Counted from the stretch's first letter, positions 1,543-9,003 are shown. The stretch is 56,628 bases of DNA from an uncultured Lentisphaerota bacterium (GCA_903894975.1 CAITSE010000162.1:1-56628), one strand, 5' to 3'. Made by a program: numbers and translations. The notes: generated from the letters alone by a model not told the origin.

Positions 1543-4500
1543 ATGAAGCGGGGAGGCAGAATTTATTTTGCGTTGGCGGCGCGTTTTTTGGCGGCGCTGT
1601 TGCTGGTTGTCGGCCCGGCCGGCAGTGCTGCGCTCATGCCGATCTCGGCCGCGAAACTGCCGTGGCGCGAATCCGGCATCAAGCCGGTGGCCAGTCTTCC
1701 CGTCGCGGCGCTGCCATGGCGTGAACTCGACACCATCGCGCCGGCCATGCTCTCCGCCGCGGCGTTGGCATGGCGGATGCCGGCTGACAGCACCGTTCCC
1801 GGCCTGGATGTTGCAGGATTGCCCTGGAAACGCTCCACGGCCAGAACGACGGGATCGATTCCCTTGCCGCTGGCCTGGGTGCCGGACTTCTCCGGAATGC
1901 AGGCGGTCTCTGGCATGGCTGCTTCCGACACGGATGCGGCGGCGCCGCTGTCCCGCCCCGTTTATGTCACCGCTCTCTGTCGTGATGACCGCACCGGCGA
2001 TATCTGGGCCGCCACCGAAGGCTCTGGTCTCTGGCGTCTCCGCATCCGGTCCGATCCCGGCGCACCGGCGTCCGTTCCCGGCCTGACTCCCGTGGCGGAG
2101 TGGACCGCTATTACCCGCGCCGGCACCGGTGGCGGCCGTGAAGAGAACGGTCCGGCCCTGGCCACGGGCACCCCCGCCGAGTTTTCCCTGGCCGATGATA
2201 ATCTCTACGCTTTGGCTGTGGACCATCAGGGCCGGCTTTGGGCCGGCACGCTCAACCACGGCGTCAGCGTCTATAACGGCGAAAAATGGCGCAACTACGA
2301 TATGCTCACCGGCCCCTTGGGTGAACGGGTGTTCGATCTGGCCGTGTGCCCGGTGGATGGCGACGTCTGGGTTGCCACCAATGCCGGCCTCGCCCGTTGG
2401 TCCCCGGCCACCGACACCTGGAGCTACGTCACCCGCGCCGACGGCCTGCCCTCGGATCAGATTCAGTCCCTCGCCTTCGCCTCGGACGGCACCCTCTTCG
2501 CCGGCACCCAATGCGAAGGCTTGGCCATCTGTCAGCCAGAAAAAGCATTGCGAACAGAAGGCGCAAAGACGCAAAGAAAGACCACAGAGAACGCGCCTTC
2601 TCCACTTCTGTTCTACAAGAGCTGGCAGGGTATCCGCGCGCCGGAGACTTTTTGGTTGCCGCCGGCGGGGACGGGTCTGCCCTCGAACCTGATCAATGAC
2701 ATCCTGGTTCTGGCCGACGGCACGGTCGCCGTAGCCACCACCCGCGGCTTGGCCTGGTGGACGTCAAGCCAAAATCAAGAACAAGATTCAACAGAAGGCG
2801 CAGAGACACAAAGGAATACACTCCCCCTTCTTCGCGCCTCTGCGCCTTCTGTTAAAATGAATTACGCCTTGGGCTGGCGCTACCTGCGCGGCGCTGACTG
2901 GGAGGCCGCCGCCAAGGGGCTATTCCAGCCGCCATCCGCCGCCGAGCTGGCTATGGCCCGCGCCACGTTCCCGACCGACGGACGTCTTTTGCCCGAGGAC
3001 TACCTCACCTGCCTTGGTGCGGACGCCGCCGGCAACCTTTGGCTCGGCACTCGCCGGTTCGGTTGCCATATTCTTCCCGCCGGTCAGTTGCGCGACGGCG
3101 TTCTTCGCGACATCCAGCACTGTGAACTCCCCGCCGCCGCGTCCCAGAACCGCGACTTCGTCTTCAGCCTCCTGCCCCCGGCCGGCAACCACCCCGCGGC
3201 CATCGGCTGGTACGGCGGCGGCGTCACCCTGACGCCCGGTCTCCCGTTACCCACTGACGCACAACGGAAAAACATCGCGCCCGGCCCCACCACCTTCTTC
3301 GGCCGGGTCGGTGCCTTCTTCTTCGGCGGCGCTTCGGATGTGGCGGGCACAGATCAAAAAACCAAGCCCGTGGCTCTTCCCTCTCCCGCCCGCCCGCCAA
3401 CCGCGGCGGAACTCCAAACCCTCCTCGATCGTCTCCCCAGCCCCGTCGCGTCTGTTGTCCTGAACCCTGAACCCAATCCCACCTCAGTTCCGCCCAGCGC
3501 CATTTTCCTCGGCGACGACTGGCGCACCTGGGGCGACTGGGTCGAACGTTATGGCCGACGCTACGCCCGGCTCTGCGCCACCAATGCCCCCGCCTACGAA
3601 GACACCTATTTCTACGAACTGCGCAAGTACAGCGTTAAAGGCTTTCTCGGGCCGCACCACACGCCGGATGACTCCTTGCGCCATTGGATTCACTGGATCG
3701 TTTCCCCCACCCGCCGCTCCCTCTACCGGCCCAACAGCGGCGTCCGCACCCAGGCCGAATGGGACGACCATGGCGAAGCTTACCCGCTCGCCTTCGAAGG
3801 CCCGGACCTGTGGGTCGCCGTCCGCGTGCCCGCTGGCGACCATGTCATCAGCCTCTATTTCATGAACAAGGATGGAGAAGGCGGCATGAACCGCGTCCGC
3901 GACTACAAGATCGAAGTTCATGCGTTGGATGTTCCCCAAGATCCCAAGTGGACGACGTTCAAGGTCACCGATGCCCACGTGGAGGGTGCCCGGCAGACGC
4001 CGCCCCTCGCCCAGTGCCGCATCCGCGACTTCCGCGGCGGCGTCTACAAACGCTTCTTCACCCGTGGCGGCAGTGTCTACTGGTTTCACGTTCAGGACAA
4101 CGGCAGCTTCAACACCATCCTCTCCGGCATCTTCGTTGACAAATGGAGCGAACCCTTCCTCGATCCCGGCCGGGAAGGCTGGCTCGGCTGCACGTTCGAG
4201 CGGGTGCGCTACCGGCCCAAAACCGACACTGGGAAAATTCTGGACGCCGCCACCGGATCCGGCCTGGAACTGCCGCTGATCCTTTGGCGTCATCCCTTGG
4301 ACGCGGCCGGGCCGGAGCCCGGAATTTTCGCCGATCGCCGGGACAAATTATTTGCATATCGTTTTGCCCGCGATATTCTACCGGACTCAGGAAAGTTGGA
4401 GGAATGGAAGTGGGAGTTGCGCCTGTGGGAGTCGGGCGAGCGGGAGCGGTTCTGGGATACCATGATGCTGGCGTGGGGCCGGCAGCAGGCCAAATGGCCG

Positions 4501-4590
4501 ATTTTCCGGAGTCCGAGCTTTCGGCCGTTCAGCCCGGTGCTGGATCAGGCAACTGTAAGTGAGCTCGAAAAACGGCTGTCAGGGAACTAG
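1543..4590 (+). CDS. Large exported protein: two-component-regulator-type beta-propeller repeats plus uncharacterised C-terminal domain
   Basis: Signal-peptide-like N-terminus; blade motifs such as ALAVDHQGRLWAGT, DGDVWVATNAGL, DGLPSDQIQSLAFASDGTLFAGT, GLPSNLINDI; ATG 1543 preceded by GGGGAG. Confidence 0.75.
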   Translation: MKRGGRIYFALAARFLAALLLVVGPAGSAALMPISAAKLPWRESGIKPVASLPVAALPWRELDTIAPAMLSAAALAWRMPADSTVPGLDVAGLPWKRSTARTTGSIPLPLAWVPDFSGMQAVSGMAASDTDAAAPLSRPVYVTALCRDDRTGDIWAATEGSGLWRLRIRSDPGAPASVPGLTPVAEWTAITRAGTGGGREENGPALATGTPAEFSLADDNLYALAVDHQGRLWAGTLNHGVSVYNGEKWRNYDMLTGPLGERVFDLAVCPVDGDVWVATNAGLARWSPATDTWSYVTRADGLPSDQIQSLAFASDGTLFAGTQCEGLAICQPEKALRTEGAKTQRKTTENAPSPLLFYKSWQGIRAPETFWLPPAGTGLPSNLINDILVLADGTVAVATTRGLAWWTSSQNQEQDSTEGAETQRNTLPLLRASAPSVKMNYALGWRYLRGADWEAAAKGLFQPPSAAELAMARATFPTDGRLLPEDYLTCLGADAAGNLWLGTRRFGCHILPAGQLRDGVLRDIQHCELPAAASQNRDFVFSLLPPAGNHPAAIGWYGGGVTLTPGLPLPTDAQRKNIAPGPTTFFGRVGAFFFGGASDVAGTDQKTKPVALPSPARPPTAAELQTLLDRLPSPVASVVLNPEPNPTSVPPSAIFLGDDWRTWGDWVERYGRRYARLCATNAPAYEDTYFYELRKYSVKGFLGPHHTPDDSLRHWIHWIVSPTRRSLYRPNSGVRTQAEWDDHGEAYPLAFEGPDLWVAVRVPAGDHVISLYFMNKDGEGGMNRVRDYKIEVHALDVPQDPKWTTFKVTDAHVEGARQTPPLAQCRIRDFRGGVYKRFFTRGGSVYWFHVQDNGSFNTILSGIFVDKWSEPFLDPGREGWLGCTFERVRYRPKTDTGKILDAATGSGLELPLILWRHPLDAAGPEPGIFADRRDKLFAYRFARDILPDSGKLEEWKWELRLWESGERERFWDTMMLAWGRQQAKWPIFRSPSFRPFSPVLDQATVSELEKRLSGN

Positions 4591-4635
4591 CCGTTGTGTG
4601 TCACGGGGTGGAGGAAACGGGTAGGGAGGGGAATC

Positions 4636-7922: not shown

Positions 7923-7944
7923 AAGAAGGGGCGTGTGTAAGGCC

Positions 7945-9003
7945 ATGACAAAAAAACGGATGCAGAGAATTTCAGGATATTGCGCCTGGTCGTTGTCTGT
8001 CCTGACCGCGTTGCTTATGCTGGCAGGTTTTGGCGGCCGAGCGTACGGAGAGTGCCCGGTTCCGGTGCCGGTGAAACCGAAGACGGACTTTCAGTTGATC
8101 GAGGAGGGACTGAAGAGCGGGGATGCGACGGCACGGGGAAAGGCGATGGAGTTGATCTGGCGGCAGCTTGATGAGAACCCGACCAATGCCGTGCGCGAAC
8201 TCCGTATGAAGTGGAGCCGGTTGCTGATTCAGGCAAAGCGAAACCAGGAGGTGGCGGATCTGGCGGTGGAGGCGGCGATGGCCGCACCGGCGGAGAGTGC
8301 GGCGCTGGAGGACTTGTTCGTCCTGCGTACCCAGGCGTTGCTGGCGCTGGGCAAGCCTGACGAGGCGCTGGTGTCGGCCAAGAGCGCGTTCAATATCTCC
8401 GGCATGGCAGGCACGTCGCGGACGCTCCAGGTCATGGCGGAATGCCTGCGCCGGACGCATCCGAATGAACCCTTGATTCTGGACCGTTTTCGCCGTGAGC
8501 AGGCCGCGGCGGCGGGCGCCGCGGTCTCTGATTCCCCCGGAGCCGCCCCGGAACCAGGCGAGGCGCGGCCTGAACCGGCAAAGCCCCTCGCGAAGAAGGC
8601 CGAGAGTTCTCCTCCTCCGCCGTCGGGCTACGGGACTTCGCTGTTGGTGAAAGGGATTGCCGTGAACGGCGCGGCCTACCGTAAACGGCTCTCGGAGATC
8701 CAGGGCGACGACTACCGGGCTTATACGGCGCGGGGGAATCTGCTGTTGCTGGCGGACAGTCCGGCGGAGGCCCGGGTCATGTTCGAGTACGCCTATTCCC
8801 TGGCGATCGAGAAAGACATGACTGCCGCGACGGAGAATCTCGTTCGTTGCGTCAAAGCCGAGGACGGCGGCATCGGCCGGGCCAACGCCTGGGTTCTGTC
8901 CCTGCGCCCCCCGCCCAAGTCCGCGCCGGGGGGCAAGTCTCCGACCGTTCCGGAAAAGGCGCCTGTGGGCGAAACGGCGGAAGTCCCCAAGGGCAAGCCG
9001 TGA
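7945..9003 (+). CDS. Exported alpha-helical (TPR/HEAT-like) hypothetical protein
   Basis: Signal-like N-terminus, Ala/Leu-rich helical repeats (ALLALGKPDEAL; RGNLLLLADSPAEAR), Pro-rich linker. Confidence 0.65.
   Translation: MTKKRMQRISGYCAWSLSVLTALLMLAGFGGRAYGECPVPVPVKPKTDFQLIEEGLKSGDATARGKAMELIWRQLDENPTNAVRELRMKWSRLLIQAKRNQEVADLAVEAAMAAPAESAALEDLFVLRTQALLALGKPDEALVSAKSAFNISGMAGTSRTLQVMAECLRRTHPNEPLILDRFRREQAAAAGAAVSDSPGAAPEPGEARPEPAKPLAKKAESSPPPPSGYGTSLLVKGIAVNGAAYRKRLSEIQGDDYRAYTARGNLLLLADSPAEARVMFEYAYSLAIEKDMTAATENLVRCVKAEDGGIGRANAWVLSLRPPPKSAPGGKSPTVPEKAPVGETAEVPKGKP

Follow-up and report, generated by a model that had tools for sequence, protein, structure and literature searches.

Within a window of 56,628 nucleotides from an uncultured Lentisphaerota bacterium (GCA_903894975.1 CAITSE010000162.1:1-56628; 'the window' means this whole stretch throughout), two adjacent genes, here termed g2 and g3, probably encode a Sec-exported lipase-type toxin and its periplasmic immunity protein, a reading based on sequence comparison and structural models. 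The two lie in the middle of a row of four genes, g1 to g4, which the original prediction, drawn from the sequence alone, had taken for a single exported antagonism module. For g2 and g3 the toxin/immunity-like part of that claim has been strengthened by their pairing across genomes, by the arrays and orphan copies of g3 found in relatives and by co-folding, whereas the parts assigned to the neighbours, a propeller carrier and a TPR chaperone, have fallen away.

The window corresponds to one contig (C162) of the bacterium's genome (G000; 4.46 Mb in 376 contigs, 89% complete), and the stretch is present in lake and freshwater metagenomes from three studies; no RNA set is among the public data sets listed as containing it. 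The arrangement is as first described: the four genes are co-oriented and tightly spaced on the + strand, with gaps of 45 (g1/g2), 17 (g2/g3) and 22 nt (g3/g4) in which a consensus scan finds no terminator-like site, all four N-termini resemble signal peptides when judged by eye, and Pfam matches place a ROK kinase and recO on either side. Public lake and freshwater contigs span g1 to g2 (1258-5250) and g2 through g3 to g4 (6289-8373) without differences, so that the order of the genes cannot be put down to a faulty assembly of the record. The locus comprises the following features.

140-1108, - strand: flanking ROK-family gene (Pfam scan)
1543-4590, + strand: g1, 1015 aa (open reading frame, ORF, and translation)
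4636-6795, + strand: g2, 719 aa (ORF and translation), proposed toxin
6801-6806, + strand: AAGGAG, ribosome-binding site of g3, 6 nt 5' of its ATG and 5 nt past the g2 stop codon (direct reading)
6813-7922, + strand: g3, 369 aa (ORF and translation), proposed immunity protein
7945-9003, + strand: g4, 352 aa (ORF and translation)
9128-9748, + strand: flanking recO (RecO_N; Pfam scan)

g2 and g3 travel as a pair

When the four proteins were compared by tblastn with loci carrying g2 relatives, relatives of g3 lay directly downstream, and no relative of g1 or g4 was present in those loci of related genomes or in 80 metagenome loci (535,546 bases). Co-occurrence elsewhere, one of the checks proposed for the four-gene module, is thus confined to g2 and g3. 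By a g3 profile, all 15 genome loci that could be evaluated have a g3-family ORF that begins at most 700 nt downstream in the same orientation. Ten of these loci supplied rows of the profile, though all had first been found by tblastn with the window's g3; five are independent of it (L007, L010, L014, L015 and L019). The metagenome loci were kept from at least 510 relatives recovered by a scan with the hydrolase alignment; eight of the 80 end too early, and a downstream g3-family ORF is present in 67 of the 72 that could be evaluated. Four of the five without one have weak transthyretin-domain matches in its place. Near-duplicates are included in these counts, 45 of the 50 complete g2/g3 pairs being non-redundant. 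No other neighbouring gene is common to the g2/g3 loci.

Base composition divides the row of four genes in the same manner. The GC contents of g1 (0.643) and g4 (0.647) are close to that of the genome (0.634), whereas the g2 core (0.52) and g3 (0.50) have values close to or under 0.527, the first percentile for 1-kb windows of the genome. The GC content of third codon positions (GC3) reaches its lowest values in g2 codons ~501-719 and g3 codons ~81-200; g2 codons 1-166 have a host-like composition (GC3 0.76). Co-occurrence and the split in GC together mark g2 and g3 as a foreign two-gene cassette, horizontally acquired on this sequence evidence, and g1 and g4 as native neighbours that stand outside the conserved pair.

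Within the phylum the g3 family is scattered, being present in 17 of 301 genomes, and a quick tree places near-identical hydrolases in three different families. No match to the g2 core was obtained by tblastn in 72,556 plasmid records, and a scan of viral contigs returned one relative. The recO loci of four genomes of the same family have no other gene in common with the window, and therefore no empty-site comparison is possible. A pair of the g2/g3 type is also present on a 3103-base contig of a metagenome-assembled genome of Aestuariivirga sp. (Pseudomonadota; L021); in the quick tree it is nearly identical to Verrucomicrobiales pairs (branch lengths 0.065-0.14), which reflects either a recent cross-phylum transfer or a mis-binned contig.

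g2 is an exported serine hydrolase with a deiminase-like module

The second gene had been described as an alpha/beta-hydrolase of ~720 aa with the motifs HGWN and AHSMG, and this description stands. Residues 415-511, and only these, match DUF900 (PF05990) above the gathering cut-off (29.0 bits, cut-off 20.5), as do most of the g2 relatives scanned; at E<=0.1 the Pfam scan returned DUF900, Oxidored_q2 and Abhydrolase_8 alone, of which only DUF900 exceeds its cut-off. HGWN lies at residues 407-410 and AHSMG at 484-488. The AlphaFold model (mean predicted local distance difference test score, pLDDT, 78.9; predicted template modelling score 0.80) consists of a disordered N-terminus (residues 1-106 with pLDDT <50), a beta-rich part and an alpha/beta-hydrolase, which map to the window as follows.

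4636-4944, + strand: g2 residues 1-103, signal-peptide-like start and low-confidence Ser/Thr-rich linker, absent from relatives
4945-5835, + strand: g2 residues ~104-400, double immunoglobulin (Ig)-like domain, similar to peptidylarginine deiminases (PADs) in their N-terminal and middle domains
5836-6795, + strand: g2 residues 401-719, alpha/beta-hydrolase (lipase-like) domain, with His-Gly at 407-408
6091-6093, + strand: Ser486 in AHSMG, putative triad residue
6337-6339, + strand: Asp568, putative triad residue
6694-6696, + strand: His687, putative triad residue

The best structural match of residues 399-711 is the Bacillus subtilis lipase 1i6w (Z 15.3, root-mean-square deviation (rmsd) 2.5, 167 positions aligned of a 180-residue chain), followed by Lip_vut1 (6nkc, Z 15.2); the g2 profile has no match at E<=0.01 among PDB sequences. 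His407-Gly408, Ser486, Asp568 and His687 are invariant in 46 aligned relatives, and Ser486, Asp568 and His687 are kept in 50 of 50 metagenome relatives (49-50 of 50 when His407-Gly408 is counted as well). From this conservation and the fold, Ser486, Asp568 and His687 are inferred to form the catalytic triad. With fold, nucleophile elbow, acid, histidine and oxyanion-hole His-Gly all present, sequence and model identify g2 as a serine enzyme of the alpha/beta-hydrolase class. B. subtilis LipA (1i6w) differs in sequence (13% identity to g2), in size, large insertions expanding the g2 domain to ~320 residues from 180, and in having no counterpart of the added N-terminal module. The two proteins do have in common the pentapeptide A-H-S-M-G.

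It is the Ig-like part that dominates a Foldseek search with the whole model, in which human PAD1-4 are the top matches (E 6.6e-8 and weaker). VIA-align superposes g2 residues 104-358 on residues 35-295 of PAD2 (9dol) with Z 12.3, rmsd 4.4, 201 aligned positions and 17% identity. Conserved acidic residues and Asn are found in this double domain (N194, D196, D198, D211, D238 and D241), and by analogy these Asp/Asn clusters suggest PAD-like calcium sites. The likeness to PADs ends with the Ig-like part, as a lipase-like domain replaces the deiminase catalytic domain. Identification of g2 as a peptidylarginine deiminase was rejected on two grounds, residues 400-714 being an alpha/beta-hydrolase and Pfam giving no PAD match.

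The closest named relatives of g2 come from genomes of uncultured Victivallales and Lentisphaerae. Residues ~167-719 are common to at least 350 relatives whose N-termini vary, so that proteins ranging from 430 to 2000 aa have only a core of ~550 aa in common. TSP3_bac, Big_7, Big_13, fn3, CHB_HEX_C, LTD or CotH domains, or nothing recognisable, precede the core, and Rhs, PAAR, VgrG and TPS domains are absent from the relatives scanned.

g3 is a probably membrane-anchored partner

The third gene had been predicted to encode an exported prealbumin-fold protein preceded by a strong ribosome-binding site, and both features are present, the latter as AAGGAG and the former as a transthyretin-like domain in the structural model (mean pLDDT 78.8, mostly beta). 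Also on the + strand, the model has a hydrophobic helix at residues 2-23, a helix at 32-52 and C-terminal helices at 323-368, between which lie two domains.

6975-7328, + strand: g3 residues ~55-172, transthyretin-like domain (model)
7338-7772, + strand: g3 residues ~176-320, second beta domain (model)

The first domain matches the transthyretin-like domain of carboxypeptidase D and CnaB/pilin domains with Z 7.5-8.3; the g3 sequence has a sub-threshold CarboxypepD_reg match (20.8 bits, cut-off 32.3). No Pfam or NCBIfam family was matched by g3, and its clusters in the ESM Atlas are named 'hypothetical protein' alone, even though the g3 profile finds 1169 cluster representatives at E<=1e-30. 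The protein is probably exported and anchored in the membrane through its N-terminal hydrophobic helix. A hydrophobic signal or anchor likewise opens 43 of 50 g3-family ORFs, which places the family where a Sec-exported lipase would first meet the membranes of its producer.

The original prediction had also proposed co-folding of the hydrolase with the protein encoded at 6813, and this gave a positive result. With g2 residues 165-719 and g3 residues 38-369, each supplied with its own alignment, the pair scored 0.75, and the highest of three controls 0.01. Of 80 solved complexes 58 attain the mark, as do 2 of 110 mismatched pairs, counts that serve only as a rough guide here because the alignments were our own. 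Agreement between runs extends to at least 64% of the contacts, with a partner pLDDT of at least 80. The tightest predicted contacts join g2 segments 566-573 and 676-684 to g3 residues 79-96, 116-121 and 130-151 in the transthyretin-like domain; the two g2 segments flank Asp568 and precede His687. This region is the part of g2 with the lowest GC3, and it overlaps the part that is kept in the orphan fragments described below. The models thus support binding between g2 and g3.

Toxin/immunity-like genetics in relatives

In genome G072 a full hydrolase gene is succeeded, in this order, by one g3-like gene, a C-terminal hydrolase fragment of 111 aa with its own g3, a 71-aa fragment with its own g3, and four more g3-like genes. 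The two fragments correspond to the final ~100 and ~70 residues of g2, the catalytic His motif included, at 43% and 36% identity, and they resemble g2 more closely than they do the tail of the resident G072 hydrolase, which is 14% identical to g2. Tandem copies of g3 follow the hydrolase in four further loci (L020, L079, L080 and L116), hydrolase fragments are present in L140 and L141, and tandem g3 genes or fragments also occur in L150. In G314 a C-terminal hydrolase remnant stands alone before g3, and two genomes that are both 99% complete (G137 and G052) have g3 genes without any hydrolase. By analogy with characterised systems, arrays of g3, modules of C-terminal fragment plus g3, and g3 without hydrolase are hallmarks of polymorphic toxin/immunity loci. 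The window's own locus has no orphan modules, fragments or g3 arrays.

A second locus of the kind is found in the same genome, on contig C128. It encodes an exported protein of 1847 aa in which residues 1160-1643 match the g2 profile (E 6.5e-22), with a PAD-like plus alpha/beta-hydrolase core and a C-terminal tail that resembles that of the resident G072 hydrolase. The genes of the locus (L175) have these positions on the contig.

9137-14680, - strand: hydrolase
8211-9254, 7122-8135 and 6079-7113: three tandem ~340-aa genes of the g3 superfamily
2804-5725: neighbouring gene

The tandem genes are homologous to the weak g3-like genes of G072, and profile comparison joins them to the g3 family with a probability of 98.6% (E 5e-16, 259 columns). 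An MmeI-type (type IIG) restriction-modification gene adjoins them. As judged from sequence, the same hydrolase/g3 logic is present twice in this genome, in two subtypes. The first of the three tandem genes has an aberrant C-terminus.

Points that weigh against a toxin/immunity pair

Several observations count against this interpretation or limit it. Lipases, esterases, thioesterases, phospholipase A1, Tle3 and Tle4 all fall within ~3 Z units of the best structural match of g2, so the match is generic and does not single out a substrate. No receptor-binding, translocation or injection domain was recognised, and the reading therefore offers no account of how the phospholipids of a diderm target would be reached by a secreted lipase. 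On the side of the partner, g3 is unlike any known family of immunity proteins, and the fold matches of its second domain, to BfrB/HmuY-type chains (Z 7-8.4), are weak. The interface is predicted by a model, and a dedicated chaperone would bind g2 as well; moreover, Ser486 lies outside the confident contacts, so that occlusion of the active site is argued from the contacts with the Asp and His loops. Among the 45 non-redundant pairs, the divergence of g3 tracks that of the whole hydrolase domain (rho 0.57 for the first part and 0.47 for the last ~100 residues), and these distance correlations give no specific sign that the C-terminal tail and g3 are swapped as a unit. Finally, the contigs of four public runs contain neither a cassette-free variant nor a joint that skips g2 and g3; the public-contig joints near 1284, 9784 and 9928 have short sides and lie inside a dispersed repeat.

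Alternative explanations

The alternative that survives best, which we nevertheless regard as unlikely, is that g3 is a steric chaperone, secretion helper or membrane tether of a secreted lipase employed in nutrition or envelope remodelling. The model for such a protein is Lif, which is membrane-anchored, all-helical and encoded directly after lipA in Pseudomonas and Burkholderia. The layout of g2/g3 is the same, a hydrolase gene followed by a tightly coupled gene for an anchored, exported binding partner; binding between the two products is predicted, and many of the relatives are large secreted proteins rich in Ig-like or adhesin domains, typical of polymer-degrading bacteria of the Planctomycetes-Verrucomicrobia-Chlamydiae (PVC) group. 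However, genomes that are 99% complete keep g3 without the hydrolase, up to seven g3 copies stand behind one hydrolase, and truncated C-terminal fragments each have a g3 of their own. Orphans, arrays and fragment-plus-g3 modules would be useless to a foldase, and therefore count against such a role. Kinship with Lif itself was rejected, as g3 is mostly beta in its model and has no match to the Pfam lipase-chaperone or to any NCBIfam foldase family.

More doubtful still is the suggestion that g2 is an ordinary extracellular esterase or lipase for degradation and g3 an accessory binding protein, with arrays and orphans as by-products of duplication and decay. The generic alpha/beta-hydrolase fold matches would be expected of such an enzyme, transthyretin-like domains are common in carbohydrate-active and surface proteins, and the lake and freshwater habitat is a suitable one. 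Set against this are the very strict pairing across phyla, the foreign composition and patchy distribution, and a confident, specific predicted interface on the catalytic loops, to which the conflict-gene setting of the C128 locus, beside a type IIG restriction-modification gene, may be added as a weak point.

A joint action of the four genes, with the propeller as carrier or scaffold, the lipase as effector, g3 as immunity protein and the TPR-like protein as chaperone, seems highly improbable: tight spacing, co-orientation, the lack of terminator-like sites between the genes and the position of other g1-like genes beside unrelated genes of lower GC (contig C193, and contig C59 of genome G001) would suit it, yet no g1 or g4 relative is near any other g2/g3 pair found, contig C3 has neighbouring g1-like and g4-like genes but no g2/g3 between them, relatives of g4 hardly occur outside this genome, and composition separates native g1 and g4 from the foreign g2 core and g3.

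Comparison with known systems

The Tle/Tli pairs from type VI secretion systems (T6SS; Tle3/Tli3, 8boz, and Tle4/Tli4, 4r1d) resemble g2/g3 in that a GxSxG-type hydrolase gene directly precedes the gene of an exported or periplasmic partner. The fold of g2 matches Tle3 (Z 12.3, 219 aligned, 18% identity) and Tle4 (Z 11.6), in neither case better than it matches many unrelated esterases. Tle proteins belong to the sequence families DUF2235, Lipase_3, DUF3274, PGAP1-like and PLD. Membership of g2 in Tle1-5 was rejected, the Pfam scan at E<=0.1 containing none of these families. Unlike Tle proteins, g2 has its own Sec signal peptide and no Pfam family above cut-off except DUF900. What was originally remarked of the locus, an absence of visible VgrG, PAAR, Rhs and CdiB hallmarks, extends to the relatives scanned; VgrG, PAAR and Rhs are absent from these and from the conserved neighbours, and g3 resembles no Tli by sequence.

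A second comparison is offered by cinquedea of Haloferax larsenii, a secreted hydrolase of the DUF900 type reported as a bactericidal phospholipase, which is an archaeal, Tat-exported, single-domain protein of 260 aa encoded as a single-gene unit without a partner, and kills without a contact-dependent injection machine (bioRxiv 10.64898/2026.06.10.730825). That source gives DUF900 in most of its relatives, an x-H-S-x-G nucleophile motif, and hornet phospholipase A1 (4QNN) as the closest structure (bioRxiv 10.64898/2026.06.10.730825). Cinquedea and g2 are alike in being exported hydrolases of the DUF900 type, in the x-H-S-x-G motif and in having 4QNN among their structural matches (Z 12.9 for g2), whereas the PAD-like module and the obligatory downstream partner set g2 apart.

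The genetics resemble those of polymorphic toxins that bear a signal peptide and have orphan modules, MafB/MafI of Neisseria and the orphan arrays of CdiA-CT/CdiI and Rhs-CT/RhsI, for which a review describes a partner gene immediately downstream and orphan modules of toxin fragment plus partner (PMC4436062). The g2/g3 loci share the downstream partner, a single domain (in g2 the putative toxic one) behind many N-termini, orphan modules, partner arrays and partners without a toxin. The variable part differs: in MafB, CdiA and Rhs the trafficking region at the N-terminus is conserved and is joined to many unrelated toxin domains, whereas in g2 and its relatives it is the catalytic core that stays the same and the N-terminal region and the final ~100-200 residues that differ. 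No TpsB, T6SS or MafA-like helper gene is conserved beside the pair in the loci of relatives.

Proposed mechanism and its significance

If g2 and g3 are indeed toxin and immunity protein, the antagonism cassette would have arrived by horizontal transfer and been inserted between two native genes. Its toxin, g2, would be exported by Sec as a PAD-type double Ig module of calcium-binding appearance joined to a LipA-like DUF900 serine hydrolase, which would most likely be a (phospho)lipase that damages membranes. The partner g3, exported and tethered to the cytoplasmic membrane through its N-terminal hydrophobic helix, would use its transthyretin-like domain to clamp the g2 loops carrying Asp568 and His687, thereby neutralising g2 in the periplasm of the producer, and would also protect cells from the same enzyme released by neighbours. 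Release of g2 may take a general secretion route, possibly the type II secretion system; this genome, at 89% completeness, contains five secretin genes and no match to TssC (PF05943).

Systems that combine a lipase-type toxin, a periplasmic immunity protein and the genetics of polymorphic toxins are already known. What is new here is the g3 partner family, the joining of a PAD-like module to DUF900, the lack of any known delivery hallmark, and a constant core with varying ends and partner. In the portions available of the literature on DUF900, on polymorphic lipase toxins and their orphans, and on transthyretin-like immunity and phospholipases, no description of the g2/g3 pair was found. A wider proposal, made tentatively and with slightly less than even expectation, is that the pair represents a large undescribed class of contact-independent polymorphic lipase toxins of PVC bacteria and several other phyla, secreted by Sec and probably by the type II pathway. 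In such a class the PAD-like, calcium-binding Ig module would target the envelope of competitors, and the partners would form a new superfamily of membrane-anchored, transthyretin-like immunity proteins that diversifies via orphan C-terminal/immunity cassettes, as in contact-dependent inhibition and Rhs systems, with two subtypes in the present genome.

Were this so, antagonism in PVC-group and other environmental bacteria, which are mostly without studied toxin delivery systems, would rest in part on a very common cassette, to judge from the at least 510 metagenome hydrolase relatives and the 1169 g3 cluster representatives. It would also bring to light a new fold family of immunity proteins, a new use of the PAD N-terminal module, and a case in which the catalytic core of a toxin stays constant while its ends and partner diversify. 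As a two-gene system it is directly testable in E. coli, and the neighbouring propeller g1 and TPR-like g4 should not be annotated as part of it.

The neighbouring genes and other features of the window

The first gene, g1, was correctly described as a beta-propeller protein of ~1015 aa with a C-terminal domain of unknown type. It matches Reg_prop (PF07494) with E 3.7e-16 and 57.6 bits (cut-off 20.4), and its C-terminal ~400 aa have no match in Pfam, no ESM Atlas score of 0.9 or above, and no match at E<=0.01 among PDB sequences. The helical, TPR-like label given to g4 could not be verified: there is a single sub-threshold TPR_4 match (17.7 bits, cut-off 27) and no match to PDB sequences at E<=0.01. 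The genome has paralogues of g1 on its contigs C193 and C3, and there are further ones in one related genome. Those of g4 occur as tandem pairs on contigs C3 and C155, and a search of 40 relatives gave one weak match (E 3.6e-4); on this sequence evidence the g4 family is lineage-restricted and almost confined to its own genome.

On contig C3 a g1-like gene directly precedes two g4-like genes with no g2/g3 between them. This paralogous native block (L046: 7377-9632, 6230-7234, 5397-6143, 4456-5400, 3361-4434 and 1865-3364, all - strand) encodes the g1-like propeller, the two g4-like proteins, two Abhydrolase_3-like hydrolases and a Wzy_C (O-antigen-ligase-like) membrane protein. On contig C155 (L047: 7806-9623, 6686-7738 and 5604-6794) two g4-like genes come after the gene of a PKD/Ig-domain protein, and the N-terminal translations of neighbouring genes appear by eye to be related to 3-deoxy-D-manno-octulosonic acid (KDO) synthesis and Lpt-like. 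Genes of the g1/g4 type may belong to an envelope-related system. The window itself has an envelope- and lipopolysaccharide-related neighbourhood 3' of recO (11102-16684), with an LptD-like protein (793 aa, weak Pfam matches), a DegT/DnrJ-type aminotransferase and an ABC exporter with a transmembrane domain.

Two other g1-like genes have neighbours of lower GC. That of contig C193 (L045: 10561-13908 and 13962-17829) lies beside an ORF of >1289 aa (GC 0.55), and that of contig C59 of genome G001 (L050: 909-2225, 2260-3294 and 3291-5951) beside a DUF6345 protein and a 344-aa exported protein (GC 0.46-0.48); g1-type genes may thus mark sites that collect foreign cargo. Within g1 itself, palindromic repeat units lie in frame at a dip in GC3 (2553-2582 and 2787-2856; pairs I3 and I4, family D1), and in one public contig 2579 is joined to 2828, so that 248 bases are missing. 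These units may be in-frame insertions in a propeller loop that vary in the population.

A hairpin element with 35-nt arms that are 86% complementary lies 5' of g1 (1250-1335) and recurs at ~20113 and ~50077-50131. Its 20-nt core, allowing up to three mismatches, has 92 occurrences on 66 of the 376 contigs, and it looks like a dispersed intergenic repeat of the repetitive extragenic palindromic (REP) or miniature inverted-repeat transposable element (MITE) type. The public contigs show a peak of depth, loose ends and joints with short sides where the element lies, at ~1250-1300 and ~9784-9930.

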